Below, one piece after another: positions 39,876-61,985 of a stretch of DNA of 64,000 nt. The stretch's first letter is position 1. Each line of letters starts with the position of its first letter. Location: NCBI GenBank assembly GCA_963795855.1, contig CAWCIZ010000001.1, positions 32,001-96,000 on the forward strand, written 5' to 3'. The notes under the pieces were generated by a model. The model searched no databases. It had not been told where the DNA came from and saw only the letters and a list, made by a program, of their open reading frames with translations. The stretch is from Vulcanimicrobiota bacterium. GTDB lineage: Bacteria > Vulcanimicrobiota > Vulcanimicrobiia > Vulcanimicrobiales > Vulcanimicrobiaceae. A program made the position numbers and the translations under genes.

Positions 39876-39879
39876 TAAG

Positions 39880-40248
39880 GTGGCTGATGTTCTGATCGTC
39901 GACGACGATCAAAACAACCGGCTGCTGCTCGCCACACTGCTGCGGCATGCCGGACATAAGGCAGTGGAGGCGGCAGATGCTCGCGCTGCAACCGCGACTT
40001 TGGATGATAAGATCCCAGCGCTCGTCATCGTCGACCTTTCGCTTCCCGGCATTTCCGGCGTGCAGTTGGTGCGGCAGATACGAACCAATCCGCGCACTGC
40101 AAACGTAAAAATCGCGCTGTACACGGCCACGCAGGCCGGGCCGGCGCTGGAAGAATTATGCGACGCCTACGGAATCAGCGCAGTCATTCCGAAGCCAGGG
40201 GACCCGCGCGAGATTTTGGGGGTGCTGCAGCGATTGTTGACACCGTAA
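39880..40248 (+). CDS. Single-domain response regulator
   Basis: LIVDDD, VDLSLPGISG, YTA, KP. Confidence 0.88.
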   Translation: MADVLIVDDDQNNRLLLATLLRHAGHKAVEAADARAATATLDDKIPALVIVDLSLPGISGVQLVRQIRTNPRTANVKIALYTATQAGPALEELCDAYGISAVIPKPGDPREILGVLQRLLTP

Positions 40249-40480
40249 TGAGATTGACGATTTTACGCACGCTGGCGAATTGACGCACGCGTGATTCGAT
40301 ATCGTCGCGGCGCTCGGCAGTGGCCGCGTCCCCTTCCAGCGTCACAACTCCGTGCGTTACTCCCACGACTATAGGACAGGCCGGAGCGTAGAGGCGAAGC
40401 TCGGCCGCTATCGCGGCGGCGAGGTCGATGTCGTCGAGCGGGTGTCGGTGCTTACCGCCATAAAATGGTTGAGCTGTCAT
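40184..40480 (-). CDS. BON domain protein
   Basis: D.DL...I...L, V.V..GVVTLEG, V..IVN.I.V. Confidence 0.75.
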   Translation of the reverse strand: MTAQPFYGGKHRHPLDDIDLAAAIAAELRLYAPACPIVVGVTHGVVTLEGDAATAERRDDIESRVRQFASVRKIVNLITVSTIAAAPPKSRAGPLASE

Positions 40481-40922
40481 GCGGGTTGATGCTCTCGCTT
40501 CTCACTGCGTATTCCGCCTCGATGTCGTGGGCGAAATCATCCAGTAGTCGACGCATTGTACGGTGCGCGATGCGCCGGCCGGCAACAATATCGAAGAACT
40601 TCCCAATCACAGCGTACGGGGGATCGTAAGCGCCCTCCAGTTGGAGCGTGACTCCCGAATGATGAGGACGTACCGTCAGCACGCCCCGAAAGTCGGGAAA
40701 TAATCCGGTGGTTTGCGGACGCCAGGCGATTAGAAGGGCATCGTGTTTGCGCGCTTCGTCGCTGGAATCGTGCGTGCTCGCAACGGCAAAGCGAGCCCGC
40801 TCGCCGAGCGGTGGCGCAGGCGTAAGGTAAAGGCCGGCGCGTCGATTGACGGATTTTTCCGCCAGTTCCATCGCGGCTGAAAACGGACATGCGACAAAGC
40901 GCTTTTCCCGAACCTGTGTCAT
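40452..40922 (-). CDS. Uncharacterised SRPBCC/START-like protein, paralog 2
   Basis: VACPF, FPDFRGVLTVR, LEGAYDPP..VIG..FD...G.RIA..T...LL. Confidence 0.7.
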   Translation of the reverse strand: MTQVREKRFVACPFSAAMELAEKSVNRRAGLYLTPAPPLGERARFAVASTHDSSDEARKHDALLIAWRPQTTGLFPDFRGVLTVRPHHSGVTLQLEGAYDPPYAVIGKFFDIVAGRRIAHRTMRRLLDDFAHDIEAEYAVRSESINPHDSSTILWR

Positions 40923-40947
40923 AGCGTCCTTACCGTAGCGCATCCAA

Positions 40948-40964
40948 GAGAACCACCAGGGAAC
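40948..40964 (-). promoter_or_regulatory. Direct repeat GTTCCC-N5-GTTCTC 10 nt upstream of TACGGT -10
   Basis: Plus gagaac 40948, gggaac 40959; accgta 40932-40937. Confidence 0.62.
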
Positions 40965-41163
40965 TTCTGTGCGCCTGCAGTTCCCGCAGAATTCTCGGGT
41001 GCGTTCCATCCGTCAGCGTGTGATGTACAAGAAGAAGGCGGCAAAGTCAGCGTCTTGGGCGATCGACGCGACCGCCATGCTTTTGGTTGCGCGCAATCCC
41101 GCATTGCTTTCGATCGCGCAGGGCGTCAATATCGGTTTGGAACGCGTGCTCCATAGCCTCGTC

Positions 41164-41595
41164 TCATAAACGACGTTCGAATCGTCCGCTCTTTTCTTCG
41201 AGAACGATGCGGTACATCACGGTCGGCGCCTTGTCATCTCGCGGATGAACCGTTTCGCCCGGCGGTCCGCTAAGGCAATCGGTGATCTGATCGATGAGCC
41301 AAGCGAAGCGCGAGTGCGCTTCGTCGCCGGCTATTTCTTCAAACAAGCCAGTCGCAATGACACTCTCCCAGTTGCCCACTTGGTCCATGCAATCCACTTC
41401 GAACGATACGTGCGGGTTCGCGCGCATCATATGGAGTTTCATGCCTTCGTTCGACCGAGCATACACCGCGCAGCCATCGTAGGCGTACGTAATCGGGACG
41501 ACGTAAGTCTTGCCAAACGCGTGGCACCCGATGCGTCCGATGATATTTCCGCGCAGAATGCGCTCGATCTCGCGCGTGTTAAGCTCGCCCAGCAT
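41164..41595 (-). CDS. Pyridoxamine 5'-phosphate oxidase-like flavin-binding protein
   Basis: MLGEL...EI, GRIGC, YVVPITYAY, G.K...MR.NP.V.FEVD, WESVI..G.FEE. Confidence 0.88.
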   Translation of the reverse strand: MLGELNTREIERILRGNIIGRIGCHAFGKTYVVPITYAYDGCAVYARSNEGMKLHMMRANPHVSFEVDCMDQVGNWESVIATGLFEEIAGDEAHSRFAWLIDQITDCLSGPPGETVHPRDDKAPTVMYRIVLEEKSGRFERRL

Positions 41596-41606
41596 GGTGT
41601 CTGTCC

Positions 41607-42095
41607 CTAAGCGGTTGCAACGACCTGCGCCGTTTTTGAAGGCTGACGACGTGTAGCGTGCGCGGCCCAACGGACGACCATCACCGGCACGTTGGCGTGG
41701 CGCAAAACAGCTTCCGCGACGCTGCCAAGCAGCGCACGTTTGAAGCCGGTGCGCCCATGACTGCCCATAACGATTAAATCGCAAGCATTTGCCTCGCAAT
41801 AGTCAATGATTGCCTCAACCGTTTGACCGTTCAGCGCAGTCGTTTTGGCTTGCGCGGTCGCGACGACGCCGGCAGCGGCGTCCGCCAGCACTGCCTTGGC
41901 TTCCTCTTCGAGAGCATTGTAGCAGGCTGCGCTCATCCCGGGGTCACCGAACGCCATGGCCGCCGCCTGGCTCGGATCAACGACGTTGCAGATGGTCAGC
42001 GCGGCGTGCTGCTCGCTCGCGAGCTGGGCGGCAACGTTGAGCGCCTCCAACGATCCCTGTGAGCCGTCAATGGGGCAAAGAATATGTTTGAACAC
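41607..42095 (-). CDS. Universal stress protein
   Basis: FKHILCPIDGS, DLIVMGSHGRTG...LLGSVAE.VLR.A.VPV.VV. Confidence 0.95.
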   Translation of the reverse strand: MFKHILCPIDGSQGSLEALNVAAQLASEQHAALTICNVVDPSQAAAMAFGDPGMSAACYNALEEEAKAVLADAAAGVVATAQAKTTALNGQTVEAIIDYCEANACDLIVMGSHGRTGFKRALLGSVAEAVLRHANVPVMVVRWAAHATRRQPSKTAQVVATA

Positions 42096-42132
42096 GGTTA
42101 CTCCTCCGATTTCATGAGCGTAGCAGCGACGC

Positions 42133-42191
42133 GAGAAACCAAAGAGAATCCAGCGAGGCGCCGGTTCCCGTGGGGTTCCTAAGGCGTTCCA
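42133..42191. promoter_or_regulatory. Divergent promoter region with 11-bp-period repeats on both strands
   Basis: gagaaa 42133/gagaat 42144 (towards USP, -10 agcgta 42117-42122); gttccc 42164/gttcct 42175/gttcca 42186 (towards the ABC-xfp operon). Confidence 0.62.
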
Positions 42192-42210
42192 TCAACCGCC
42201 GCATCGTAGA

Positions 42211-43026
42211 TTGGTGAAGATTCGGCGCTACCCGTATCGGCCGCGCGTCCTGTACGAGACGACGCTCGCTCACCACCTGGCGTCCCTTGCGGCGGCAATC
42301 GTGGTGGCGTTCGTGCTCACTATTGTTCTCTTGCATTTCGCGAATTCGAAAAACACCTTCGATATCAATAGGGTCTCGTTCGCTGACGTCGTCGCGGCCA
42401 CAATGAACACGTTTTTACGCATGCTGCTTGCCTACGTCGCATCGCTGGTGGTTGCCGTACCTCTCGGCCTGCTCATTGCCAGCACGCGCCAAGTTCAGCG
42501 CATTCTCCTGCCGATCGCCGATATTCTTCAGTCGATTCCTGTGCTGGCGTTCTTTCCGGTGATCGTCGTCTTTTTTACGACGTATCGAGCGTTTGAGGCG
42601 GCGGCGATCTTCGTGATCTTCGTAACAATGGTCTGGAACATCGTCTTTCCGATCGTTCAGGGCCTGCATACAATTCCTGACGACATCAATTCGGCAGCGT
42701 TTGTCTTCAATGTTCATGGATTCCGAAAGCTGCGCTACATAACGCTGCCGGCGATCGTGCCGTTCATCGTCGTCGGATCGCTCATGGCATGGGCGCAGGG
42801 ATGGACCGTAGTCATCGTGGCCGAGGTGCTTCACACCTACATCCCCGCCGGCAACATCGCGCAGGATTTGCTGGGCCTCGGAAGCCTGCTCGTTGACTCG
42901 AACGCTCAAGGCCACGCGGCCGTCTTCGCAGCAGCTCTGGCGGCCATGATCGTACTCGTTGCGTTGATGAATTTTCTCGTGTGGCAGCCGCTGCTCGCGT
43001 TTTCGCAAAGATATCGGTTCGATTAG
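42211..43026 (+). CDS. ABC transporter permease, NitT/TauT family
   Basis: DILQSIPVLAFFP, EAA-like loop (AA.VF...G..KL..I.LPA..P), multiple TM helices. Confidence 0.88.
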   Translation: MVKIRRYPYRPRVLYETTLAHHLASLAAAIVVAFVLTIVLLHFANSKNTFDINRVSFADVVAATMNTFLRMLLAYVASLVVAVPLGLLIASTRQVQRILLPIADILQSIPVLAFFPVIVVFFTTYRAFEAAAIFVIFVTMVWNIVFPIVQGLHTIPDDINSAAFVFNVHGFRKLRYITLPAIVPFIVVGSLMAWAQGWTVVIVAEVLHTYIPAGNIAQDLLGLGSLLVDSNAQGHAAVFAAALAAMIVLVALMNFLVWQPLLAFSQRYRFD

Positions 43027-43766
43027 TCGCAGTTATTGCACTTTCGAACGTCAGCAAATCATACGAATCGCCACCGCTCTTGGTTGTACGCGAGTTTTCA
43101 CTAACGATTGATGACGGGGAGTTTCTCTGTTTGGTAGGCCCGTCTGGGTGCGGCAAGTCCACCGTTCTCAAGATGATTGCGGGCATAGAACAGCCGACGA
43201 GCGGTACGGTCACTAAACCGGCGCACGTGGGTATGGTGTTTCAATCGTATGCACTTTTTCCGTGGATGACCGCTGAGGAGAACATCGAGTTTGCCGCACG
43301 CATGCAGAACATTCCAGAACGCGAAGCTAGGCAGCGAACGTCGCGGTATCTGGCCATGGTACACCTGGAAGCGTTCGCGAAGAAATACCCGAGGGAACTC
43401 TCCGGCGGTCAGCGGCAGCGCGTGGGCATCGCGCGAGCACTCGCGGTGGATTCAAAGGTGCTGTTGATGGACGAGCCGTTTGCTGCGCTCGATCCGGTTA
43501 TCACGGATGAGTTGCATGCGGATCTGCTGCTGATCTGGCAAAGTACGCACAAGACGATCGTGATGGTCTCGCACCACTTCGACGAAGCGGTAGCGTTGGC
43601 CGATCGTATCGCCGTAATGCGCGACGGGAGATTGGAGCGCATTGTGTCGGTTGCCCTTCCGAGGCCGCGCAATGAAGAGGATGTGGCGTTCTTGCAGCAC
43701 GTCAAAGAAATTCGCCGGTGTCTGGGCTCCTTTCCGAGTCTAGCGCCGGATGCCGTGAGGAGCTGA
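42981..43766 (+). CDS. ABC transporter ATP-binding protein, NitT/TauT family (true start probably near 43030)
   Basis: [27 protein letters not shown]. Confidence 0.92.
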
Positions 43767-43768
43767 CA

Positions 43769-46133
43769 ATGCTAACAACGCAATCGCCGGTCGGAGAACT
43801 TCAGATTCTCGATGCATATTGGCGCGCAGCCAATTACTTGAGCGTTGGGCAGATCTATCTGCTCGATAACCCACTGTTACGCGAACCGCTGCGTCTCGAG
43901 CACATCAAACCGCGGCTGCTGGGGCATTGGGGCACCTCGCCGGGGCTGAATCTTGTCTACGCACACATGGACCGTGTCATCAAGCGCGAGAATCTGAATG
44001 CGATCTTCATTGCGGGTCCTGGCCACGGTGGGCCAGCCGTCGTTGCAAACGCGTACTTGGAAGGCACGTACAGCGAGAAGTATCCACGCATCACCCAAGA
44101 CGAGGATGGAATGCGCGCGCTTTTCCGGCAGTTCTCATTTCCCGGCGGCATCCCGAGCCACGCCTCGCCCGATGCGCCCGGTTCGATTCACGAGGGCGGC
44201 GAGCTGGGATACAGCTTGCTGCACGCGTACGGCGCGGTGTTCGATAACCCCGAACTCATCGCGTGTTGCGTCGTAGGGGACGGCGAAGCGGAGACCGGTG
44301 CACTCGCCACGAGTGGCATAGCAACAAGTTTTTGAATCCCTCTCGTGATGGCGCCGTGCTGCCGGTTTTGCATCTGAACGGATACAAGATCGCTGGCCCA
44401 ACGGTCCTTGCGCGCATTGAAGACTCCGAACTCATTGCACTGTTGCGAGGCTACGGTTACGAGCCGGCCATAGTCGCCGGTGATGAGCCGCAAGCGGTGC
44501 ACGAGTCATTTGCGAGGACGCTGGACGAGGCGTTGGATCGCATCCATGAAATACAATCAACGGCGCGAGCGTCGGGATTCCAGAAACGGTCCGCGTGGCC
44601 TATGATCGTGCTGCGAACGCCGAAGGGCTGGACGGGTCCCAAAATAGTCGACGGCGTCCAAGTCGAGGGCACGTTTCGCGCGCATCAAGTGCCGCTTGCC
44701 GACTTCGATACGAAGCCGGCTCACCTGCGCATGCTCGAAGAGTGGATGCACTCGTACCGTCCTGAAGAGCTGTTCGACGAATCGGGCAAACTGCGCGAAG
44801 TTATAGCCGCTGCCGCACCGTGCGGCACCAGTCGCATGAGTGCCAACCCAAACGCCAATGGCGGGGAAGTACTCAGGCGACTCGTCGTGCCGGATTTCCG
44901 CAGCTATGCGCTCGACGTCGCTTCGCCGGGGACAGTGATGCACGAGAGCATGCGCACGGCGGGGAGCTCCTGCGCGATGTATTACGGCCAAAATCCTGAT
45001 TGTTTTCGGCTCTTTGCGCCAGACGAAGCGGCCTCGAATCGCTTAAATGCCGTATTTGAAGTGGCAGAGCGGTGTTCGACGGCGACCGTATTGCCCACCG
45101 ACGATCATGTGTCCGCCAAGGGGCGCGTTATGGAGATTCTGAGCGAACATTGCTGCGAAGGCTGGCTTGAGGGCTATCTGCTCACCGGACGGTACGGCGT
45201 GTTCACGTCGTACGAGGCGTTCATCCATATTGTTGATTCAATGTTCAATCAGCACGCAAAGTGGCTTGCGTCATCAAAACGCATCCCTTGGCGACGCCCC
45301 ATCGCGTCCCTGAACTATCTCCTCAGTTCGCATGTCTGGCGCCAGGATCACAACGGCTTCACACATCAGGATCCCGGCTTTTTGGATGTGGTCGTGAACA
45401 AAGGCGCCGACGTGGTGCGCGTTTACCTTCCCCCGGATGCCAATACACTGCTATCAGTCCTCGATCACTCCCTGCGCAGCATGAACTACATCAACGTCAT
45501 CATTGCGGGAAAGCAGCCGGAGTTGCAGTGGCTCGACATGGATGCCGCCGTCAAGCATTGCACGAGGGCGTGGGCATCTGGACCTGGGCGAGCAGCGACG
45601 AAGGAACCGAGCCGGACGTGGTGCTCGCGTGTGCGGGCGACGTGCCGACCCTGGAAACGCTTGCGGCCGCGGATTTCCTGCGAACTGCACTTCCAGAAAT
45701 GCGCGTTCGCATCGTCAACGTCGTCGATTTGATGACGCTCCAGCCGAATACGGAGCATCCGCACGGGCTTTCCGACAGGGAATTCGACTCCATATTTACG
45801 GCGGACAAGCCGATCGTGTTCGCTTTTCACGGCTATCCTTGGCTTATTCACCGCCTAACGTATCGCCGAACGAATCATTGCAATTTGCACGTGCGCGGAT
45901 ATAAGGAGCAGGGCACAACCACGACACCCTTCGACATGGTCGTACTCAACGAGATGGATCGCTTCCATCTCGCCGGAGATGCGATCGATCGCGTACCGCG
46001 CCTGACTGATCGCGCGGGGCATGTCAAGCAGCTGATCCGCGACAGATTGGTCGAGCACCGGCTGTACATTGAGAAGTACGGCCAAGACATGCCGGACATT
46101 CGCGACTGGCGATGGACGCAGGCAAAGCAGTGA
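43769..46133 (+). CDS. xfp: Phosphoketolase (Xfp); indels near 44310, 44960-44985 and 45570
   Basis: [73 protein letters not shown]. Confidence 0.93.
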
Positions 46134-47170
46134 ACATCCTCAGCCTGAACTTAGGTTCGTCCTCGTTGAAGTATGCCGTCCATGCCGTAACCGACAGTGG
46201 GTTGGAATGCAGGCTCGCGCGCAACTTGGTATCGTCGTCGCAGCCGCAGGATGCGGCACGAGCGACATGCGAAGCCATTACCGATGCCGTGCAACAGGCC
46301 GGCGTGGTGAGTGCCGTCGGGCATCGCGTGGTTTTCGGCGGCGAGGATGACGCACCGACACGCATTACGCCCGAGTTGATCGAGCGCCTTGAAGGGCTCC
46401 AGTCGCTGGATCCGTTGCATGCGCCCGGCGCACTTGCCGTCATCCGGGAAGCGCTGACGGCTTTGCCGGCCGCCGCGCAGATAGCATGCTTCGATACGGC
46501 GTTCTTTCGCGATCTGCCCAAAACAGGCCGCACACTCCCGCTTCCTATGGACGATCCGCTGCTCCGGCGCTACGGCTTCCACGGGCTTTCATATGAGCAC
46601 GTGTGTCGCGTAGTTGGCGAGAAGGTGAGACCACGTACGGCCGTCGCGCACCTCGGTAATGGCGCGAGCGCCGCAGCGCTTTTAAACGGTCGCCCTATAG
46701 CGACGACGATGGGGTTTAGCCCCCTGGGCGGTATGATCATGTCCACGCGGACCGGTGACATCGATCCGGGCGCGCTTTTGTACCTGCTCGAGCGCGCAAA
46801 CATGGATAAGCATACGCTGCGCGATCTCCTCGAAAATGCCAGCGGTCTGCGGGCCCTTTCCGGCGATGAGAGCGACTTGCGCAAACTGTGCGAGCGACAG
46901 GACGAGGGCGCCCAATTCGCAGTCGAGATGTTCGTACGTTCTGCCGCGAGGGCCATCGCAGGATTAGCCATCGAGCTGGTCGGGCTTGATATGCTGATTT
47001 TTACGGGTGGAATTGGCGAACACAATGCGGCGGTACGTAACGCCATACTCGCACGTTTGGCGTTCCTCAATCCGAACCTGACGGTGGAGATCATCGAATC
47101 CGATGAAAATGCGTCTATAGCGCATAACGTCGCCCGCATGGTCGATTCCCGCATGCGAACATCGAAATAG
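46130..47170 (+). CDS. ackA: Acetate kinase
   Basis: [56 protein letters not shown]. Confidence 0.93.
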
Positions 47171-47194
47171 CTTCGAGACAGGGACGGTAGCAGC

Positions 47195-47918
47195 ATGAGC
47201 AGTCGTATCCCACGCAGCACACCGGGACCGAGACACGTCGAACGGCACTTTACTGCTTCCGAAACGGTGCGCGATATCGTCATTTGGCATGTCGGATGGC
47301 CTAACGGTGCCGTTTGCGCTTGCAGCAGGCATTTCCGGCGCAATAGCGGCTTCGCACGTTGTCGTCACCGCAGGTATTGCGGAGCTGGCAGCCGGCGGCA
47401 TCTCGATGGGGCTGGGCGGATATCTGGCGGCGCGCACCGATATCGAACACTACAAGAGCGAGCAGCAACGCGAGCAGCGTGAAGTGGACGAAATACCAGC
47501 GGAAGAACGCATGGAAGTGCAAAGCATTCTTCGCACGTATGGGTTAGGTCAAGAAGATGCCGCGCGCGTCGCGAGCGCTCTTACTTCAGATCGCGAACGC
47601 TGGATCAACTTTATGATGCGCTTCGAGCTTGGTTTAGAAGAACCGGATCGGCGCAGAGCGCCGCTGAGCGCGCTCACGATTGGCGGTTCGTACGTTATCG
47701 GCGGCATAGTGCCGTTGATACCGTATATGCTCGTTCAAAGATCCAATCAAGGCTTGTATATTTCCGCGATCGTCACGCTGATTGCCCTGTTTATATTTGG
47801 TGCTGTCAAGGGGTGGTTTACAGGCGTTCCGATTTTCCGTAGCGCTTTGCAAACGGTGGTCATCGGCGGTGTGGCGGCGGCCGTCGCCTTTCTGCTGGCC
47901 AGATTAGTTGCCGGATAG
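47195..47918 (+). CDS. VIT1/CCC1 Fe/Mn transporter; indel near 47285
   Basis: ERHFTASETVRDIVI(G)MSDGLTVPFALAAG, ISMGLGGYL, MMRFELGLE. Confidence 0.9.
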
Positions 47919-48695: not shown

Positions 48696-49881
48696 TTATT
48701 GGGTCCCGATAGGTGTGGTCCACCAGAACAGCCAGCGCCATGTCGGTCTACCGTTCGGCGCAGTGGAATTTCCGCCGAGTCCTGCTTCGACATATCCATG
48801 CAAATAGCGCGCATGCGGCACGTTGAACGCGAAGTCCACATTTTGGGCATGCGCGAGATTGCCGAGGCCATCATCGGTGAATTCGTCACGGAAACCAAGA
48901 ACGGCGCCGCGATTAAAAAGCGATTCGTAGAGTTCTGCGGTAACTGCTTTGCTGCTTGCCGCGGGCAATTGGTTGCCATTTGCATCCAAGCCGGGATTCG
49001 GGTCGTGCGCCGCCTGGTAGATTGCGAAGACGCCCGGAATGCCGTTCGGCTGCGGATCGCGTTGCAGATATGCCGCAATCGAAGTGTAGTGGTCGGCGGC
49101 GCCGGTGGACACGATGTAGCTGCCGCTGCTGCCGTAAAGTCCTAACTCCGGCAGTTGCGGCCGGTCGGCGTGGGCACTGGCGAGCTTCCATTGAAACGTC
49201 TTGTCGGTACCCGGCGTCGTCGCAAAGTCCGCGGCGCCGATCATACCGTTGCTGCTCAGCAGCCAGCCCGCTTCGGCGTCCAGCGCGCCATGCACGTACG
49301 CAAGTTTGCTTCCCCAGCGGTTTGCATCAAGTTGGTAAACGTGCTCACCGACGGTGATCTCCGGCGTAGCGAATGCGGAGATGTCGAAAAACTGGCTGAA
49401 CGGCGAAGGCGCCGGCGCTTCATACTTGCCGATGAACAGGTGGCCGTCGCGATGGAATAGGTTGTTGTAGGTGACCCACGCGGTGTCGAGCGTGCCGCCC
49501 GCATCGTCGTTTTGCAGTAGCCACTGCTGTACGTGGAAGGTCCAATCCGGAGCGAGATATCCGGCGCCATGCAGCGCCAGATTACCGAACGAATTCTTGT
49601 AGCCCGGTGAAATGTTGCTGACGCCGCCGGTGCTGTCGCCATTGACTTGCTCGCCGATCCAGATCGGAACCACCGATTTGATGACGTCGTGATTCAACGA
49701 CGAATAGCCGGTCCTTTGGACGTATCGGCCGTACGCATTGAGCGCGGGTACGAGCGTGTGGCAGGTGCTGCAGCTCACACCGTAGGCTTTCGCGAAGGGA
49801 GGCATGGCGTATGCGCCCGCTTCAACGGCCAGCGCAAACCCGGCGCATGCCGCCGCACGCCATGACGAGGCGCACAATCAC
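48696..49881 (-). CDS. Cyc2-like monoheme cytochrome c-porin fusion; probable indel in the signal peptide
   Basis: AYA cleavage then MPPFAKAYGVSCSTCHT.VPALNAYGR, followed by a beta-strand-rich barrel ending WLFWWTTP. Confidence 0.72.
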
Positions 49882-50237
49882 TTTTGCACCTTGATTGTAA
49901 GCGCCATGTTCGGATGGCCGGCGCCGCAAATAACCGAGCAGTGCACAATGTACGTTCCCGCCTTTTTCGGCGTGAATGTAACGGTCACGAACTTGTTCGG
50001 CATGATCGTCGTGTCGGGAATGCCCAGTTCGTCGGACTTGATCCCGTGCACGCCTTCGCTGGACGTTAACCGCAGCGTGGTCGGTTCGCTGAGCGGAACC
50101 GTAATGGTATCCGGCGTGAATTTCCAATTCGACGCGACGATGTCGATGCTTGGATGCGCGGTAATCGAGAGCGGAATGATCGCGGCGCACACCAGGAGCA
50201 GTGCGGCCGAAGGCAGGGCGAATCCGGTGATTTTCAT
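49878..50237 (-). CDS. Periplasmic cupredoxin (CuA-type ligand pattern)
   Basis: Signal peptide; W.F.P..I.V, VHG, CSVICGAGHPNM. Confidence 0.88.
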   Translation of the reverse strand: MKITGFALPSAALLLVCAAIIPLSITAHPSIDIVASNWKFTPDTITVPLSEPTTLRLTSSEGVHGIKSDELGIPDTTIMPNKFVTVTFTPKKAGTYIVHCSVICGAGHPNMALTIKVQK

Positions 50238-50314
50238 GTCGCAATTGTAAAGCTTACATGAGGCCAATCGGAGAACGGCCTAGGCCAACTCGGAGAATAG
50301 GCTGCAAAAACAAG

Positions 50315-50341
50315 AGCAGAGCGGTGGTTCACCGCCCTGCT
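50315..50341 (-). terminator. Terminator hairpin downstream of the 50364-50729 cupredoxin
   Basis: Minus agcagggcggtg-aac-caccgctctgct then cttgttttt. Confidence 0.6.
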
Positions 50342-50363
50342 GTGTCCCTCGCAGAAACTTGCT

Positions 50364-50729
50364 TTAGACGGCTTTTATCGTAATCATCATCTTGCCATGA
50401 TCGGGGCCGCAAGGGATTCCGCACTGTACGGTATACGTTCCGGGTTTTGCGGCCGTAAAGCTTACCATCTTGGTCGATCCTGGCGTGACCATTGTGTTTG
50501 GAATGCCAAGTTCGGCGGATTCGATGCTGTGTACACCGCTCTGCCCGACCAATTTAAGCTCGACGGGTTGTCCCGCATGAACAGTAATTTGTGATGGGCT
50601 GAACAAGGACGAGGCTGAGGCGGTGATGGTTACGACTTGCACAGGAGCGGCGAACGCGCCAAGCGATGCGCCGGCGCTCAGAGAGAGTCCGAATACGCAG
50701 GCTGAAAAAACAGAGATAAAACGCTTCAT
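50364..50729 (-). CDS. Second periplasmic cupredoxin (CuA-type ligand pattern)
   Basis: MKRF signal peptide; FSPSQITV, VHS, CGIPCGPDHGKM. Confidence 0.88.
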   Translation of the reverse strand: MKRFISVFSACVFGLSLSAGASLGAFAAPVQVVTITASASSLFSPSQITVHAGQPVELKLVGQSGVHSIESAELGIPNTMVTPGSTKMVSFTAAKPGTYTVQCGIPCGPDHGKMMITIKAV

Positions 50730-50804
50730 GAACAGCATGATAGCAGCGGTGGGCGAACTCAGCAGGAACGATGTGAGAACAGGTTGAGGCCACGACTTTT
50801 GTCG

Positions 50805-50936
50805 GAACAAAAAATCAAGAGCCACCGGCAAGGCGACTCTTGATTTGTTTCCGCGGTCTGGTTCTACAATTGGCCTGATAGCAGGCCCTAACTTCAGAGA
50901 GCCCCGCGCCGCTCTTTTTCTGATGTCTGAACCGTA
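50805..50936 (-). ncRNA. Candidate small RNA with its own repeat-box promoter and intrinsic terminator
   Basis: TACGCT at 50947-50942 with repeats at 50958/50969; no ATG; internal hairpins; terminator 50812-50846 with U tract. Confidence 0.4.
50809..50846 (-). terminator. Rho-independent terminator of the oxidase operon
   Basis: Minus aaatcaagagtcgcc-ttgcc-ggtggctcttgattt then tttgtt. Confidence 0.75.
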
Positions 50937-50982
50937 TGCCCAGCGTATCAATTCGATGAGAACGCGTCGAGAAAAGACTGCG

Positions 50983-51714
50983 TCACTTCAGAGATTCGAC
51001 GTAAGCGGCGACATCGCGGACGTCTTGCGAGTTGATCGTGGAGGGATAGAGCTTGGGCATCGGCGGCAGTGGATTCTCGATCCACGTTACGGCTTGCGCG
51101 AAGTTTTTTCGCGACGCCTCACCGATAAGGCGCGGTCCCATTCCGCCTTGGCCTTGCGCACCATGGCATGAGGAGCAATTTTGCGCGAAGATCGCTTTCC
51201 CGTGAGCCGGGTCCGGCGCGGCGTTCGACGCTGTTTGGGAAGAGGCCGTCGCCGATCCGGTTGATGCTGCAACCTGCAACGGTGGGCTGACTCCGAAACC
51301 CCAAGCGGCGAGAAACGCCATCGTCCACAAGCTCAATGCCATCGCCGTGCCGACGCCGTACGCATACTGCTGCCCCGCATAAGCCGTTAGAAAACCGAGC
51401 AGCGCGAGGCCGAGGTGTTCGAATACGTGCGCTGCGGGCAGTTTCTCGAGCGGCGAATATTCCGAGGGCCACATCAGCAGCATCGCGAGCATCGGCGCAA
51501 CGATGCTGAGCACGAGCCATGTTGCGCGTTTGGTGAACGCCGCGGGGGACCGGCGCGCGATCAACAGTCCGGAGAGCGCCGCACCGATCAAAATGATCGC
51601 ATGCAGCAAGTGGTGGATCCGCACCGGGAATTCCACGCCTGTTCGATACGCGGGCGCGAGTGCGAAGAGAACAGTTAGAGCGAGAACGACGTAGCCGAGT
51701 GTGCGCGATTTCAT
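50983..51714 (-). CDS. CtaG-like membrane domain fused to monoheme cytochrome c
   Basis: TM helices with HHLLH and HVFEH; C-terminal CSSCHG..G.G..GP.L, PMP. Confidence 0.8.
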   Translation of the reverse strand: MKSRTLGYVVLALTVLFALAPAYRTGVEFPVRIHHLLHAIILIGAALSGLLIARRSPAAFTKRATWLVLSIVAPMLAMLLMWPSEYSPLEKLPAAHVFEHLGLALLGFLTAYAGQQYAYGVGTAMALSLWTMAFLAAWGFGVSPPLQVAASTGSATASSQTASNAAPDPAHGKAIFAQNCSSCHGAQGQGGMGPRLIGEASRKNFAQAVTWIENPLPPMPKLYPSTINSQDVRDVAAYVESLK

Positions 51715-53207
51715 CCCGCTGCCTCTGCCTTGGCAAGCCGCGCTAACCGCGCCGCTTCAATCCCGGCGATGATGAGGCCGGCCAGCAGAATCAGCGCACC
51801 GATCGTCGCGATACCCGCGTACTGCGGTCCGACGCCAGGTTCGACCGCGTACCTTCGAGGCACGCCGCTTGCTCCAGCGATGTAGAAAGAGATCAGAAAC
51901 AATGCGGCCCCGCCGAAGATCGTCGCGCCAGTAAGCCAGCGCATGAAGAGCGACGACGTCTGGCCGCTGCGTTGCTCCAGCGTGACAAACGCCCAGCCGA
52001 TGATGAACAGCAGTACGCCCTGCAGCAGATACGTATGGAAGTGCCCGGGCACCCAGAGCGTGTTGTGCAAATCCAAGTTTATCGGGATCGTGGCGTCGAG
52101 AACGGCCGCGGTGCCGCCGACGACCCAGCCGATCATGCCGGCGTACAAGAACATCGATCCCAGGCTCCAGCGCAACCCCGAGCGGTGTACCAGCATCGTA
52201 CCGGAGAAAACCGTCACGACGACGACCGGAATGGCTGCCAGATACGATGCGATTTCTCCGACGAACTGCACGGTTTCCGCTTGCGCGAAGTCCATGTACA
52301 AATGATGGAAGTACGCGATGATGACGAAGAGCAGCGTTCCCCACCACGCGACGACCAAAGGCTTCGACGTGTGATATTCGCGTTTAGTGCATAGCGGCAA
52401 AGCAACGTACACGCCGGCGACTGCTATATACATGGTTAGATTCGCGAAGGTATGTCCGAACTGATAGATCAGATTCTTTGCCCAGAGTGGATCGATCGCG
52501 ACGGACGGATCGATCCAGTGCACGAGCAGCCCGACGCCGGCGGAAAGCCCGAAGGTGCTGCCGATGATCCCGTCAATCGCCGTAATCGCAGCGGCGAACA
52601 TCTGCGGCGGCGGTTCAACGTGCGTCTGCGCAAACGCGCGCGTGTTGAAGACGTAATCAATGCCGAGCATCCCCGTTATGCCGCCGTAGCGGTTGAGCAA
52701 TGCTCCGAGAATCTGAGCGCACCAAATCATGAAGCCGATCATGACGAGCGCATTGCCGATGAGCCACACGCCGGTCGCCCAACTGGGCCAATACGTGCCG
52801 ACGAAAGGCAGCGGATAGAGCATGGTCCAGAGCGAGCCGTACTTACCGGGAAAGACGCTGATGATCACGCACAGCGCTCCGGCGAGGAAGAATCCGTACG
52901 CCAGATACGCGATGCGAGGGTCGATGACTGCTTCGCGCCGTACCAAGTACCACAGCGTTCCCAGCCCAGCGATAGCCATCGCAGTGATCATGCCGATGCC
53001 GTGTAGACTCAGCATCGCGTAAAACCAGCCGGGATCGTACGTTATCCAGCCGGCTTGCTCTGCGCGCATCGTGATGCCGATGAGCAGCATTATGAAAAAA
53101 ATTGCGAGCCCCGTAGTGATGTAGGTCCACATCACGGTACGCGCACTGCGCAACTCCGCGCTGGTCGGCGCTACGTTAGCGCCGATGTCAATTGTGATCG
53201 CGCTCAT
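51711..53207 (-). CDS. Heme-copper oxidase superfamily subunit I, B-family derived, sNOR-like (active-site Tyr replaced by Asn)
   Basis: SLHG (helix II), WTMLYPL, KNLIYQFGHTFAN, YFHHLYMD, HNTLWVPGHFH, GVPRRY. Confidence 0.88.
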   Translation of the reverse strand: MSAITIDIGANVAPTSAELRSARTVMWTYITTGLAIFFIMLLIGITMRAEQAGWITYDPGWFYAMLSLHGIGMITAMAIAGLGTLWYLVRREAVIDPRIAYLAYGFFLAGALCVIISVFPGKYGSLWTMLYPLPFVGTYWPSWATGVWLIGNALVMIGFMIWCAQILGALLNRYGGITGMLGIDYVFNTRAFAQTHVEPPPQMFAAAITAIDGIIGSTFGLSAGVGLLVHWIDPSVAIDPLWAKNLIYQFGHTFANLTMYIAVAGVYVALPLCTKREYHTSKPLVVAWWGTLLFVIIAYFHHLYMDFAQAETVQFVGEIASYLAAIPVVVVTVFSGTMLVHRSGLRWSLGSMFLYAGMIGWVVGGTAAVLDATIPINLDLHNTLWVPGHFHTYLLQGVLLFIIGWAFVTLEQRSGQTSSLFMRWLTGATIFGGAALFLISFYIAGASGVPRRYAVEPGVGPQYAGIATIGALILLAGLIIAGIEAARLARLAKAEAAG

Positions 53208-53713
53208 CGAACGTCAAAACCTCCTTGCATTGCGGCGTGCGCTATACCGCAGTATTCTAGGCACCGAACCGTGTAGTGGCCGCGGACGTGGAACAGAAAA
53301 GGCAGGTGGTTGACGTAGTCCGGCATCGCCTGCACCTGTCCAACCAATCTGCCGTTGGGATCGTAGATGGCAAAGCCGTGGTTGACATCTCGCGAGGTTA
53401 CGTCGAACACCACGGGTCTGTCCGCCGGGATGGCTGCCGGCAGCATGAAACTATACTGCTGCGCGATCACCCGATAATGCTGCCCGAGTGTTTGCGCACT
53501 ACCGTACGGAAAGTGCGGAATCGTGAAGATAAATACCGCAATGGCGGCGGCCATCACGGTAATGAACCAATACCTTCGAATGGCGTAGCCCTGCGCTGAA
53601 ACGACGTCCTGTGGTACGGGCGTGCGCGAACCGTAGTTTGCGAGAAACACCATCAGCGCAATAGCCACCGCTGCCACGATCAAAAAGACCTCAAGAACAA
53701 GCAGACCTGACAA
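53204..53713 (-). CDS. Heme-copper oxidase subunit II with CuA
   Basis: Two TM helices; TSRDVNHGF, QAMP.YVN, CLEYCGIAHAAM. Confidence 0.92.
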   Translation of the reverse strand: MSGLLVLEVFLIVAAVAIALMVFLANYGSRTPVPQDVVSAQGYAIRRYWFITVMAAAIAVFIFTIPHFPYGSAQTLGQHYRVIAQQYSFMLPAAIPADRPVVFDVTSRDVNHGFAIYDPNGRLVGQVQAMPDYVNHLPFLFHVRGHYTVRCLEYCGIAHAAMQGGFDVR

Positions 53714-53728
53714 CAGTTCCCTCCTCCG

Positions 53729-54823
53729 TTATCCTGCGACGCGGGCGGCGTTCTCGTGCAGTATGGCTGGCACATACGCGCACGTCGGCTCTTCCGCAAA
53801 CGCGTCGCCGGCCATCGTATAGGCGCGCGACCGTGAACCGCCGCAGAGCTGCCGAAACTCGCAGGCGCCGCATTTGCCGCCGAAAGTCTCGGGCGAGCGT
53901 AGCCGCCGCATCTCGGGGTCTCCCCGATACATCTCAAGTAAGTTGTCCGTTCGGACGTTCCCTACCGGATTGGGAAGGAAACCGCTGGGGCAAATTTCGC
54001 CGGTGTGCGAGATAAAGACGAACCCCTTGCCGTCGCCGATTGCCGGAAACTCCATCCACGGCTGGCGCGCGTGCGCCGGCCGTTCGAGCGCAGGGGCAGC
54101 CGCCTTTCGTTGCGCCACATATCGCCGAAAGTTTGGCGCCTCCGTCGTCTTTACAGCGAACCGCGACAGCCGCGAAATGCGGTACAGCACCCGAAACGCT
54201 TCCTCAGTCTCATTTGCATCCAAAACTTGGTCGGTTTCGCGCGCCCCACCGGAATCAGAAAGAACGCACTCCAGAGGACGGCATCGAGCCGCTCGACCAG
54301 CGCGGCAATCTGTATCAAGTCATGCGCGTTGAAGCGTGACACCGTGGTGTTGATCTGCAGTTCCATGCCGAGGTCGCGTACTGCCTGCGCTGCTTCTAGC
54401 GTGCGTTTGAAGGAACCGTTGACTCCGCGGAAGCGATCGTGCATCTCCGCTGTGGCGGCGTCGATGCTGAAGGAAATCCGTTTGCAGCCGGCCGCGACCG
54501 AGTCGCTCCAATGCCGCTCGCGTGAGGCGTCCCGTGGCGCTCGGGGAAGCGGCAACGCGCAAGCTGCGATAGGTCGCGTACTCAGCGATCTTATAGATGT
54601 CATCGCGCATCAGCGGATCGCCACCAGTTAAGACGAAAATCGGCTTGCCACATTGGCGCACGGCGTCGACCAGGCAAAATGCTTCTTGGGTAGTAAGTTC
54701 CGCCGGATTGCGATGGGCAATCGCTTCGGCGCGGCAATGCCGGCACGCAAGCGCGCACGCGCGGGTCATTTCCCAAATGACAATGCGCGGCGCATCAGAG
54801 TAAGTTTGAGAAAACAGCGCCAT
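53729..54823 (-). CDS. Radical SAM/SPASM protein, TIGR04053/AhbD-NirJ-like; indels near 54500 and 54240
   Basis: WEMTRACALACRHCRAEA, LTGGDPL.R.D, FISHTGEICPSGFLP, GKCGACEFRQLCGGSRSRAY...EPTC. Confidence 0.88.
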
Positions 54824-54858
54824 GGGGTCCAGCGTACGTGCCGCCTGCAGTGCGGAAT

Positions 54859-54875
54859 GAGAACGCTGCGGGAAA
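54859..54875 (-). promoter_or_regulatory. Direct repeat TTTCCC-N5-GTTCTC upstream of the leaderless rSAM-oxidase operon
   Basis: Plus gagaac 54859, gggaaa 54870; -10 TACGCT 54836-54831, 7 nt from ATG. Confidence 0.58.
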
Positions 54876-54897: not shown

Positions 54898-55552
54898 TTA
54901 TACCGCCCGCGTCCGATAGAACAAGAGGCTTAGTAACGCCGTGACGATCCAGAACACTCCGAGGTAGCCGACGATGCCGATGTTCCTTAGCTGCATGCTG
55001 CCCGTTGCGACACCGCTCAAACCGGCTAACGCGAGTATGCCGCTAAGGATCATCAGGAAACGGATCCAAGCCGCGAGCCGATTCCCGCTAAAGGCTGGAG
55101 CCGCGAACAGCATCGAAAGCGCGAAAAAGAAGTCCCAAGCTGAGGACATCGAGAGAATATGCAACTGATGGCCATTTGAAAGAAAAGAACAGTTGAAGCG
55201 ACGATTGCTCAAGAAAGACGGGCTGGCGGCCCAGGGTGAGGATAACGAAGTGCACGCTGCTCGTTATCGCGGCGACCACGCTCATGAAGACAATGGAAGC
55301 CAAACTCAGCGCTTTAGCGTTCAAAGGAGCCCAGGCATACACCGCAATCATAAGCGTAACCATGGCCGGCATCATGATAATGATGAGAACCTCGAGCACT
55401 GAGAACATTGGATCGCCGATGGGCTGCTGCGGAGACTTAAGAGATGCGAAACCTACCCCGAGCGTGATCGCATAGGCCACCTCGAGAGTCGCAACGCTCG
55501 CCGCCGAGAAAATTCCGAGCCGGCGCGCTGTTGAAGTAAATTCAGGACCCAC
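54898..55552 (-). CDS. Hypothetical polytopic membrane protein; indel near 55150
   Basis: ORFs 55088-55552 and 54898-55212 join at WPSVAYSLDVL/AWDFFF. Confidence 0.65.
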
Positions 55553-56044: not shown

Positions 56045-56716
56045 ATGCTTCCGCCGCTCGTCGAGCGCTATCTGCGCTTTGCGTGCCCGTCGAGCCGCGA
56101 CATCATCGGCGCGACCTTACAACAATCCGGAGCTCTACGCGCCGATAATCACGATCCGTGGATGAGATTCACTGCGAGGGAACATTTCACGCTCGATCCA
56201 ATCGCGTTCCACTGGGATGCGTGGGTGGCATCTGGCCCGGTGATGCGGGTTCGCGTGCGTGACAGTTACGAGCGCCATGCCGGCTCGTCGGGCGCATCGC
56301 TGTTCGGTGTCGTCCCTGTTGGCTCGCAGCGCCCGAGCCGCGAGTTAACCGAAGCGTCCTTGGTTCGCTTTCTCGCTGAGAGCGTTTGGATACCGCCGAT
56401 GCTGCGGGATGCGCGGATTCAGTGGCAAGAGTTGGCGCTGCGCAGGATGCGAGCGACGCTCCGCGATCGCCAGAACGCTGCATCGGTCGACTTCACGTTC
56501 GAGGAAAGTGGCGAGATATCACAAGCGGAGACAGAGCGCTATCGAGACGTTCACGGAACCGTTGTTCTCACTCCGTGGCGTGGCTATTTCGAGGAATACG
56601 AGCCGCTGAACGGCATGATGGTGCCAAGGGCGGCACATGTGCAGTGGCTTACAGCAGAAGGACCGGTCGAGGTGTGGCGCGGCCGAATCACCAGCGCTGC
56701 ATTCGCGTACCGCTAG
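56045..56716 (+). CDS. Conserved hypothetical protein (DUF6544-like)
   Basis: LPPLVERYLRF, W..F.A...F, F.W.A, L.RFLAE.VW.P, G..VP.....W. Confidence 0.65.
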   Translation: MLPPLVERYLRFACPSSRDIIGATLQQSGALRADNHDPWMRFTAREHFTLDPIAFHWDAWVASGPVMRVRVRDSYERHAGSSGASLFGVVPVGSQRPSRELTEASLVRFLAESVWIPPMLRDARIQWQELALRRMRATLRDRQNAASVDFTFEESGEISQAETERYRDVHGTVVLTPWRGYFEEYEPLNGMMVPRAAHVQWLTAEGPVEVWRGRITSAAFAYR

Positions 56717-57192
56717 GAGACGGTACGTTTCGCGGCTTCTTCGCGGCGGTAGCGCGCCATTAACTCAGCAGCAATCTTCGCGAGTAGCGCCTGTACCGTG
56801 CTGCTTGCGATCTGTTTGCCGAGCGCCTTATCGAACAGCACGCCGGCCGCTCCGAGCGGCGCGGCGTAGGAACCGGTAAGCTCAAGAATGGCGCTATCAT
56901 AATCCTCATCCGCGCGGACCGTCAGCATGCCCGAAAAGGATGGATAAAAGCCGCCCGGTTCAGGCTCCCACCCGATGTACCAGGGTTCGTCGAAATGCAT
57001 CGGATCGGTGCCCACAGCGTAGCGTACGCGAACCCCTTTTTTGAGGTCGCCCTGGCCAACCGGCAGTGGCGCAGTGAGGATCAGGGGCTGCTCAGCGTGG
57101 CTTTTCGCAGCCTCCGACAGCGCTTCGTGCACGTATTCACGCGCTCGAACGTAGGGGCATGCCACGCGCAATGTTTCATTGATTGTCGCCAT
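56713..57192 (-). CDS. Uncharacterised SRPBCC/START-like protein, paralog 3
   Basis: VACPY, YPSFSGMLTVR, LELTGSYAAPLGAAG.LFD..LG..IA..T...LL. Confidence 0.72.
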   Translation of the reverse strand: MATINETLRVACPYVRAREYVHEALSEAAKSHAEQPLILTAPLPVGQGDLKKGVRVRYAVGTDPMHFDEPWYIGWEPEPGGFYPSFSGMLTVRADEDYDSAILELTGSYAAPLGAAGVLFDKALGKQIASSTVQALLAKIAAELMARYRREEAAKRTVS

Positions 57193-57424: not shown

Positions 57425-58120
57425 GTGGCCAAACGTGTGCTCGTAGTTGAAGACGAAGCCGAGATCCGGGAGACGCTAGAGGGCTATCTCCGAAAGGATT
57501 CGTTCGATGCCGTAGGGGCCGGAACGGTGGCAGCGGCGTTGGCGGAGATAGAACAGCATCTGCCTGATCTGGTCCTTCTTGACATTGGATTGCCCGATGG
57601 CACCGGATTTGACGTGCTGCGGAAAACCAACGAACTGCGCCGCGTCCCGACGATCGTTCTCACGACGCGCAGCGACGAAGTCGATCGCATCGTGGGTCTA
57701 GAGTTAGGCGCGGATGATTACATCGGCAAACCATTTTCGCCGCGCGAAGTGATGGCGCGCATTCGCGCCCTGTTTCGGCGGCTAGACGCGGTTGCCGCCA
57801 CGGCGCAACTGCCGGGAGCGGTGCACCGCATTCGCGACCTCGAAATCAATGAGGCGGCACACGAGGTCCGCGTGCAGGGGAAAGCCGTCGACGTGCGTCC
57901 CGCAGAGTTCCGCATTTTGGCCCTGCTGGCAAGACACGCCGGCCAAGTGCTCTCGCGTCCGCAGATGCTGGATCTGCTCCACGATGATGGGAGCATCTTT
58001 GAGCGCACGCTGGATCGTCATATCAATCATCTGCGCCACAAAATCGAGTCAGATCCGGAGAAGCCGACCTATCTCGTGACGGTGTACGGCGTGGGCTACA
58101 AGATTGATCCGTGCACATAA
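57425..58120 (+). CDS. OmpR/PhoB-family response regulator
   Basis: LVVEDE, LLDIGLP, GADDY..KPFSPRE, wHTH R..D.HI..LR.KIE, TVYGVGY. Confidence 0.95.
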   Translation: MAKRVLVVEDEAEIRETLEGYLRKDSFDAVGAGTVAAALAEIEQHLPDLVLLDIGLPDGTGFDVLRKTNELRRVPTIVLTTRSDEVDRIVGLELGADDYIGKPFSPREVMARIRALFRRLDAVAATAQLPGAVHRIRDLEINEAAHEVRVQGKAVDVRPAEFRILALLARHAGQVLSRPQMLDLLHDDGSIFERTLDRHINHLRHKIESDPEKPTYLVTVYGVGYKIDPCT

Positions 58121-61412: not shown

Positions 61413-61886
61413 CTAGGCTTTCTTTTTGCGCCCGCCTTTGCGGCGTCCACCGCTCTTGCGGCCGCCCTTGCGGCCCGCGGCAGCTTTGCGCGACGACTTG
61501 CGTCCGCCCGCGCTCTTTTTGCGTCCGCCGGTTTTCTTGCGTCCGCCGGTTTTCTTGCGTCCGCCGGTTTTCTTGCGTCCGCCGGTTTTCTTGCGTCCGC
61601 CGGTTTTCTTGCGTCCGCCGGTTTTCTTGCGTCCGCCGGTTTTCTTGCGTCCGCCGGTCTTCTTACGTCCGCCGGTCTTCTTACGTCCGCCGGTGCTCTT
61701 CTTACGACCGCCGGTGCTCTTCTTGCGACCGCCGGTGCTCTTTTTGCGTCCGGCGCTGCTCTTCTTACGGCCGCCCGTTGATTTGCGGCCGGCAGCTTTT
61801 TTACGTCCGCCCTTACGGCGTCCGCCGCGTCGCGATGAGCTTTCGTCGCCCATCGTTCCGCCGTTCTGCATCATGTCAGAATCCAT
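61413..61886 (-). CDS. Highly basic low-complexity histone H1/protamine-like protein (GGRKK[S]T repeats)
   Basis: GGGAGG SD before MDSDMMQ; strong sigma70 promoter; synonymous variation among repeat units. Confidence 0.8.
   Translation of the reverse strand: MDSDMMQNGGTMGDESSSRRGGRRKGGRKKAAGRKSTGGRKKSSAGRKKSTGGRKKSTGGRKKSTGGRKKTGGRKKTGGRKKTGGRKKTGGRKKTGGRKKTGGRKKTGGRKKTGGRKKTGGRKKSAGGRKSSRKAAAGRKGGRKSGGRRKGGRKKKA
61522..61746. repeat. Coding tandem repeat: nine 18-bp units (seven identical cgtccgccggttttcttg) plus three 21-bp units
   Basis: Read directly from the sequence. Confidence 0.95.
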
Positions 61887-61956
61887 TCTTCCTCCCTTCG
61901 TCCCCCCGGGGGACGAACTTGAGATGGTGGACAGCGCGAAATAGCGCTTTGTGCGC

Positions 61957-61985
61957 ATCATAAGTAATTTTTGCAAGAATTGCAA
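61957..61985 (-). promoter_or_regulatory. Sigma70 promoter TTGCAA-N17-TATGAT for the basic protein
   Basis: -35 at 61985-61980, -10 at 61962-61957; overlaps the tttgcaa-gaa-ttgcaaa inverted repeat. Confidence 0.7.

Follow-up and report, generated by a model that had tools for sequence, protein, structure and literature searches.

We analysed a cluster of seven genes at positions 48696-54823 of the window, the whole stretch of 64,000 nucleotides taken from a genome of Eremiobacterota (G000; 3.06 Mb, 6 contigs, 86% complete). All seven lie on the minus strand and, in the order that a first-pass annotation had given them, encode a radical SAM protein, subunits II and I of an sNOR-type heme-copper enzyme, a membrane domain fused to a cytochrome c, cupredoxin A, cupredoxin B, and a cytochrome-porin. 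Cupredoxin B and the porin form a conserved pair, which we interpret as an outer-membrane electron-entry module of a low-oxygen regulon that would feed B-lineage CuA enzymes. This is the explanation we prefer, and we give it a little less than an even chance. The locus is a genuine variation on the Cyc2-to-oxidase theme that extends across the lineage: its CuA carrier is unusual, and its B-lineage partner is swappable.

Conservation of the cupredoxin-porin pair

The surroundings of the porin gene were compared across the best 80 of 164 porin loci found, with near-full flanks in only 41 of the 80. These loci overlap in part with the genome set described below, and kin in them are not independent. 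The named close homologs of the porin belonged to Baltobacteraceae and Vulcanimicrobiaceae of the phylum Eremiobacterota. A cupredoxin was encoded at most 320 nt upstream of the porin in 69 of the 80 loci, and 65 of these 69 cupredoxins carried the full CuA motif. The conserved unit is cupredoxin plus porin, not porin-to-sNOR. It is represented in the window by the porin gene (48696-49877, minus strand) and by cupredoxin B (49878-50237, minus strand), a secreted soluble CuA-motif protein (His, Cys-x3-Cys-x3-His-x2-Met) with a His at its predicted mature N-terminus. Cupredoxin A (50364-50738, minus strand), a second secreted CuA-motif protein, was rejected as a core part: it is inserted here, and the closest loci have a single cupredoxin instead, which matched B at 77-85% and A at 40-46%.

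Within 8 kb of the porin, subunit I was of the ba3 type in 18 of the 80 loci, of the sNOR type in six, and of the A type in none. The neighbouring ba3-type subunit I retained the active-site Tyr. Genes for ba3, cupredoxin, and porin stood in a row in L113, L116, L121, L124, L126, and L127, and those for sNOR, cupredoxin, and porin in L053, L055, and L080; the window likewise has sNOR before the pair, and the linkage thus extends beyond this genome. The porin lay beside or was fused to a cytochrome c in L088, L122, L123, and P0071. Other neighbours were universal stress proteins (USP; 24/80 loci), sensor kinases (27/80), and phosphoketolase (8/80), a set that we take to be typical of hypoxia regulons.

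Co-occurrence was assessed in 41 related genomes from three families, including the unpublished genomes G014 and G036, which both had neither ba3 nor sNOR. A full-length porin ortholog was present in 29 genomes, sNOR in 13, and ba3 in 20. Of the 27 genomes with ba3 or sNOR, 25 had the porin, versus four of the 14 with neither (kin not independent), and the 31 best genomes gave a similar picture (21/22 versus 4/9). The association with sNOR alone was weaker (12/13 versus 17/28, p = 0.06), and a lineage-wide sNOR-porin link was rejected. So was mutual exclusion of ba3 and sNOR, which were both present in six of the 41 genomes (p = 1.0). The first-pass annotation had proposed an outer-membrane-to-heme-copper chain ending in nitric oxide (NO); the chain is plausible, whereas its NO end is weak, given the six sNOR loci against 18 with ba3.

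Structure and motifs of the cytochrome-porin

The porin was modelled from an alignment of 82 sequences, kept from 121 after near-duplicates and odd lengths had been removed. The model (mean predicted local distance difference test score 88.6, predicted template-modelling score 0.87) has 16 long strands behind a small helical heme domain. Its top structural match was OprP (2O4V; Z 22.6, root-mean-square deviation (rmsd) 3.3, 280 residues aligned), which is also the template reported for Cyc2 (Keffer et al., 10.1101/228056). The barrel implied by the earlier Cyc2 assignment was thus recovered. By sequence, the porin had no relative in the PDB at E values up to 1 and no match in Pfam or NCBIfam; the PDB search likewise gave no support to a likeness of the N-terminus to cytochrome f.

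At 393 amino acids, the porin is above the Cyc2 length criterion of at least 365 residues. The N-terminal signature P.FA...G..CxxCH...P.LN..GR and the heme motif CSTCH at 49772-49758 were confirmed as first described. The CxxCH motif was invariant in the alignment and occurred singly in 118 of 120 family matches, one of the other two being fragmentary and the other fused to a cytochrome c. Some relatives of the porin have one or two additional heme motifs (P0071, P0169, P0181, and P0192), P0071 being a C-terminal cytochrome c fusion. A second, distant cytochrome-porin of this genome (26% identity; L134:6313-7518, minus strand, corresponding to G000:C3:256312-257517) belongs to a series of genes for SCO, a cupredoxin, this porin, a response regulator, and a kinase, with the regulator nearer to heavy-metal models and a box-like site (13.1) upstream.

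Where upstream sequence was available, Ala stood at -1 (111/111 homologs), and on this we base the signal peptide. All 119 homologs had Met as mature residue 1, with constant spacing to the first Cys, versus two of 79 canonical Cyc2 proteins; in 74 of these 79 the motif stood directly behind Ala at -1. This hints that the mature N-terminus might ligate the heme, with the invariant Met1 (window 49803-49805, minus strand) as a candidate sixth ligand. Since the porin start of relatives overlaps the cupredoxin stop, translation here may natively begin at 49881, the signal codons then containing a frameshift. Four histidines (His79, His91, His122, and His155) were present in every one of the 82 family members, and the canonical Cyc2 columns mostly lack them; strand alternation suggests that His79, His91, and His122 face the barrel lumen. 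Met1 or an invariant His could furnish the second axial heme ligand. Two axial ligands were reported from electron paramagnetic resonance of one Cyc2 (PMC13692758), whereas published Cyc2 models display only one (PMC13741234); Met1 is a specific candidate for the additional ligand.

These histidines would also suit a role in copper supply, in which copper would be taken in or redox-converted by the pore and then handed by the soluble CuA-motif protein to CuA enzymes under assembly. A His at the predicted mature N-terminus of cupredoxin B in 50 of 69 loci and the position of the distant porin beside cupredoxin and SCO genes point the same way, and copper supply predicts co-occurrence with CuA enzymes as well. 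The heme motif is invariant, however, and the pair was never beside A-type oxidases, which need CuA too. Genes for SCO were found in one of the 80 porin loci and for multicopper oxidase in none (queries from this genome only). The OmpR-family response regulator encoded near the cluster scored lower on the heavy-metal model (116 bits) than on the CreB, PhoB, and BaeR models (182-197 bits), all below cut-off. We regard copper supply as improbable.

The sNOR-type enzyme and its electron acceptor

Subunit I of the heme-copper enzyme (51711-53207, minus strand) is of the sNOR type, and subunit II (53204-53713, minus strand) has a CuA motif. His252 of subunit I aligns with the CuB ligand of ba3 and Asn256 with its cross-linked Tyr; all six His ligands are kept. 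The best 80 of 283 sNOR-type loci found were used for comparison. Asn at the Tyr site and the channel residues Tyr(+4) and Tyr(+11) occurred in 80 of the 80, and Ser at the T312-like position, mapped from the ba3 alignment, in 79. Glu-255 of the Bacillus azotoformans reference was Val in 77 of 80 (by offset from Asn), Glu318 was kept in 73 of 80, and the Methylomirabilis homologs were likewise without Glu-255. Subunit I was 60% and 68% identical to enzymes on SCRA01 and JABEUX01 contigs, for which Dataset S8 lists three and one sNOR, respectively (name-prefix match only). The sNOR family has been proposed, not characterised, as a family of NO reductases (Murali et al., PMC11214002).

The chain could instead end in O2, with the sNOR-type enzyme acting as a high-affinity, NO-tolerant O2 reductase that replaces ba3; such an end would change only the acceptor and does not conflict with the electron-entry module. 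The enzyme occupies the ba3 slot behind the same repeat box, and the sNOR of Nitrosomonas europaea, induced by O2 limitation, was argued to be a high-affinity oxidase (PMC6967387). Genes for NO-forming nitrite reductases were also scarce. nirK was over the cut-off in none of the 41 genomes, with sub-cut-off nirK-like matches in only two of the 13 sNOR genomes, and the published count of 11 Eremiobacterota genomes with sNOR lists nirK or nirS for none of the 11 (PMC11214002). In the genome analysed here (86% complete), no nirK match exceeded the cut-off, the matches being multicopper oxidases and a cupredoxin, and nirS was not found; the molybdopterin matches were complex I and formate dehydrogenase. 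Any NO would come from outside the cell. Against an O2 end stand the Asn at the Tyr site in every homolog, which Murali et al. argue excludes O2 reduction and which is found at the same site in a tested bNOR (PMC11214002), the presence of ba3 alongside sNOR in six genomes, and the indirect support for NO reduction by sNOR in a Nitrococcus study (PMC5665590). We consider an O2 end unlikely, yet it carries real weight. The NO end as first claimed nevertheless fared poorly: the porin family was missing from the available flank of 74 of the 80 sNOR-type loci, no NO-forming nitrite reductase was found in the genome, and the activity of sNOR is disputed.

The gene next to subunit I (50983-51714, minus strand) encodes a protein in which a monoheme cytochrome c (CSSCH, 51177-51163) is joined to a helical membrane domain that has five invariant His. 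This His-rich domain (window 51280-51714, minus strand) occurred beside 77 of 80 sNOR-type enzymes of several phyla, fused to different cytochrome c types, and may be a third subunit rather than a chaperone. The gene had been annotated as CtaG and cytochrome c; the cytochrome c stands, and CtaG is a lead only. The Caa3_CtaG profile (PF09678) did not match the window protein and hit one of 16 scanned homologs (77 found) weakly, at E 0.072. The leads to CtaG were Atlas values of 0.80-0.81 and a 17-column match, at a probability of 7%, to one frame of a CtaG-like gene in the genome. A fold search returned helical-bundle matches only (best Z 10.1, rmsd 2.9, 113 aligned) and therefore demonstrates neither a CtaG nor a cytochrome b role.

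The radical SAM/SPASM gene (53729-54823, minus strand), nearest to TIGR04053 and the heme b synthase AhbD, is present as annotated, but it is not intact: it is spread over three frames, with shifts near 54495 and 54230, whereas its relatives in L053, L055, L263, and L264 are free of these shifts. The two end pieces were scanned, and each had TIGR04053 as its top family (132 and 170 bits; whole-protein threshold 395 bits). Frameshifts hit ordinary genes of the assembly too, with both A-type oxidase subunits I and the phosphoketolase split, so the radical SAM breaks, and probably that in the porin signal codons, may be assembly errors. A membrane protein gene upstream of the radical SAM gene (54898-55552, minus strand) is also split, over two frames, and had no Pfam or NCBIfam match.

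A shared repeat box

The box was derived from 64 promoters of cupredoxin orthologs at other loci, what remained of 68 once near-duplicates had been removed. It is a TTCNC-N6-TTCNC direct repeat with an 11-bp period, and the 11-base spacing occurred in 48 of the 64 promoters versus 1.5 +/- 1.2 expected from 200 shuffles. The repeat box that the first-pass annotation had placed before each transcription unit is thus real. On the minus strand, sites precede the radical SAM-sNOR unit (54858-54874, score 12.8), cupredoxin A (50763-50779, 12.9), and cupredoxin B (50292-50308, 11.7). Genome-wide, 13 of 1101 intergenic upstream regions scored at least 11.5, with five such sites in or beside the cluster. 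A general repeat finder did not pick up the box, and no sigma-70 consensus sites were found on the coding strand.

Direct repeats with an 11-base period are typical of OmpR-family sites. An OmpR-family response regulator gene (57425-58120, plus strand) lies 2.6 kb from the cluster and has relatives in 28 of the 80 porin loci; its product may be the protein that binds the box. The small protein gene at 56713-57192 (minus strand; no Pfam family, relatives in 29/80 porin loci) has a box of its own at 57265-57249 (score 16.0). One of the highest-scoring boxes (16.9) heads a TonB-dependent receptor gene beside a two-component system (G000:C2:185668-189010; L141), so several OmpR-family regulators may share the box.

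An apparent low-oxygen regulon with fermentation genes would also fit an outward flow, in which the pair dumps respiratory electrons under low oxygen onto Fe(III), quinones, or a similar acceptor outside the cell; the potential of -130 mV reported for one Cyc2 (PMC13692758) is consistent with this. The CuA carrier and the oxidase neighbours, in contrast, belong to the high-potential side, and the Cyc2 proteins tested are oxidases (PMC13692758, PMC13741234, 10.1101/228056). We find outward flow very improbable.

Between the cytochrome c stop and cupredoxin A we detected features that the first-pass annotation had missed: a fourth, strong box (50957-50973, minus strand, score 16.7), a -10-like hexamer, about 130 bases, and a terminator (50846-50812), which delimit a candidate box-controlled small RNA inside the cluster (50806-50936, minus strand; ends inferred). 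Its folding z-score was -4.3, in part from the terminator, and it had no Rfam match. The layout recurred in five of five genome matches to the core and in seven of nine metagenome matches, the other two being without box and flanks. The copies (L341-L347, L349, and L351-L354; about nine distinct) share a conserved core hairpin. The pairing of the outer stem was kept despite changes on both sides in L344, L345, and L346, as judged by eye; the RNAalifold consensus fold lacked this stem and showed no support from covariation (term 0.05). The small RNA is narrow in range, its exact core being found in only three of the 41 genomes. A riboswitch was disfavoured because the downstream genes differ or face the small RNA.

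Proposed electron chain

In the electron-entry reading, an outside reduced donor, such as Fe(II), organically bound Fe(II), or another small reductant, would enter the pore and reduce the porin heme. The soluble CuA protein would then carry the electron across the periplasm, a role akin to that of rusticyanin in Acidithiobacillus, and pass it to the CuA of a B-lineage enzyme, directly or via the membrane-anchored cytochrome c. The terminal enzyme would be a ba3-type O2 reductase in most relatives. Here, ba3 was not found in the genome (86% complete), and the sNOR-type enzyme would fill its slot, most likely reducing NO from outside the cell. Genes for Omp85 and for cytochrome c assembly are present in the genome, and a cultured member of the phylum has an outer membrane (PMC9758169).

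Given this reading, Fe(II) has about an even chance of being the main donor, and NO reduction by sNOR as the main sink in this genome is somewhat less probable than that. The genome also encodes two A-type oxidases, one cbb3-like oxidase, and a bc complex. The iron-fed, NO-ending version, in which cells oxidise outside Fe(II) and use the soluble CuA carrier to bring the electrons to the sNOR-type enzyme for the respiration of NO not of their own making, is a possible but less supported branch, and we think it decidedly doubtful. The NO would be released when nitrite breaks down, driven by acid or Fe(II), or be supplied by neighbours. If true, it would be an Fe(II)-to-N2O (nitrous oxide) chain without nitrate or nitrite reductase, derived from a ba3 swap in an otherwise O2-ending module.

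Several points weigh against the electron-entry reading, starting with the distance of the porin from Cyc2. Its P-x-F-A-K-A-Y departs from the published screen motif PXFAR[Q/K][T/Y] (10.1101/228056) by having K where the motif has R, and A where it has Q or K; the R occurred in none of the 18 members of its clade. We placed the porin in a tree of 108 rows that held 71 of 79 motif-selected references, eight short or cut ones having been dropped and characterised proteins and Leptospirillum left out; cluster labels were read from taxa. The 18-member clade fell outside the Zetaproteobacteria/Gallionellaceae and Acidithiobacillus groups (clusters 1 and 2), among cluster-3-like long branches, and an approximately unbiased test did not reject joining it to those two groups (p = 0.062). 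Function is described as least certain for distant Cyc2 homologs (10.1101/228056). The family profile matched 71 of 71 canonical motif-bearing references, the best matches extending 120-160 columns into the barrel and most covering the heme domain only. The Cyc2 identity proposed by the first-pass annotation therefore stands for architecture, barrel, and CxxCH, is doubtful for cluster membership, and does not hold for the exact screen motif: the porin is built like Cyc2 and related to it, and we refrain from assigning it to Cyc2 in a sense that would carry the function over.

The genomic setting adds further points. RuBisCO and NiFe hydrogenase were not found in this genome (86% complete), so the module would add supplementary energy to heterotrophic growth; RuBisCO was present in only six of the 29 porin-bearing genomes. 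Neither ba3 nor sNOR was found in the available flank of 56 of the 80 porin loci. A CuA relay near +0.25 V would be uphill from free Fe(II) in strong acid. The reading as a whole is computational: barrel fold, motifs, synteny, co-occurrence, and box were computed, while donor, direction, partner binding, and acceptor were inferred.

Clustering, too, could arise from co-regulation alone. The genes would then be co-regulated neighbours with no dedicated chain: sNOR would be fed by the bc complex via its own membrane-anchored cytochrome c and remove NO, and the pair would share the regulator and the island and work apart. As already annotated, the terminators at 50846-50812 and 50341-50315 (minus strand), the latter a hairpin after cupredoxin A, split the cluster into separate units, each with its own box. 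The sNOR unit carries its own cytochrome c, and the genome has a bc complex. Of the 80 sNOR-type loci, all had subunit II and 77 had the His-rich membrane gene; 29 encoded a cytochrome c of this type, seven the radical SAM protein, and only six, all from Eremiobacterota, a member of the porin family. USP, kinase, and phosphoketolase genes, moreover, cluster with the porin as often as oxidases do. Genome co-occurrence (25/27 versus 4/14) argues for a functional tie, as does the direct adjacency of the pair to two different B-lineage enzymes in several arrangements, and a secreted CuA protein requires an electron-accepting partner. We judge mere neighbourhood to be unlikely, though a serious contender.

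Neighbouring genes

An island at 37790-47918 holds genes for a sensor kinase, USP, a pyridoxamine-oxidase-like protein, an ABC permease, phosphoketolase, acetate kinase, and VIT1. Weaker box-like sites (9.6-12.0) lie within it at 40963-42176, and the same gene families recur near the porin elsewhere. Small proteins encoded at 40452-41009 and 37790-38401 (both minus strand), without Pfam match, resemble by eye the protein of 56713-57192, whose relatives are often multi-copy in porin loci. Two tandem SCO-like genes and a multicopper-oxidase-like gene beside a cytochrome c gene, recognised from translations, lie at 7337-8852 and 17180-19221, respectively (both minus strand). The window also encodes a Lys/Arg/Gly-rich repeat protein (GGRKK units) of histone-like appearance (61413-61985, minus strand). 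Elsewhere in the genome, multicopper oxidase domains are fused to a ZIP transporter-like domain (L137:5200-7089, minus strand, corresponding to G000:C2:281196-283088).

Significance

Cyc2-like genes and sNOR have each already been reported in the phylum. The first-pass annotation did not know the lineage as an iron oxidiser; Cyc2-based predictions for Eremiobacterota are in print, from mine sites, and the Cyc2-like genes concerned may or may not correspond to the present porin family (PMC8357290, PMC13594681). We did not find the cupredoxin-porin pair with ba3 or sNOR, or a Cyc2-sNOR linkage, in the literature searched. As the porin occurs in 29 of 41 sampled relatives from three families, its function concerns a widespread soil lineage, one already called iron-oxidising on Cyc2 hits alone. 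The same carrier beside ba3 in some genomes and sNOR in others offers a compact test both of distant Cyc2-like function and of whether sNOR reduces NO or O2. Were the NO branch true, it would be a route to N2O that nirK/nirS surveys would miss.

Comparison with known systems

The enzyme shares with the sNOR family (PMC11214002) the Asn at the Tyr site, Tyr at +4 and +11, and a CuA subunit II, and it is 55-68% identical to enzymes from listed sNOR genomes or taxa. It differs in having Val for Glu-255, with Glu318 conserved instead. Compared with the sNOR operon of ammonia oxidisers, norSY-senC-orf1 (PMC4940428), the cluster has no senC, and its third gene encodes the His-rich membrane domain that is often fused to a cytochrome c.

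The rus operon of Acidithiobacillus (cyc2-cyc1-cup-coxBACD-rus; PMC10654088, PMC13741234) likewise encodes an outer-membrane cytochrome, a periplasmic copper protein, a cytochrome c, and a heme-copper enzyme together. In the window, a CuA-motif carrier stands in for rusticyanin, a monoheme membrane-anchored cytochrome c for Cyc1, and a B-lineage enzyme for aa3. The porin gene is last rather than first, there are several transcription units, and carbon fixation was not found in the genome. As to control, the low-oxygen regulons of ResDE/SrrAB, which include the small RNA RoxS/RsaE, have the same layout: an OmpR-family regulator, a direct-repeat box, and respiratory genes plus a small RNA under one control.

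The closest likeness in architecture is to Cyc2 itself (10.1101/228056), with which the porin shares a signal peptide, a single N-terminal CxxCH, P-x-L-N-x-x-G-R, a 16-strand barrel, and OprP as best match. It differs from Cyc2 in the motif P-x-F-A-[K/Q/E]-A-Y, in Met1 (119/119 versus 2/79), in its family-specific invariant His, in forming its own clade, and in its fixed partner, a CuA cupredoxin.

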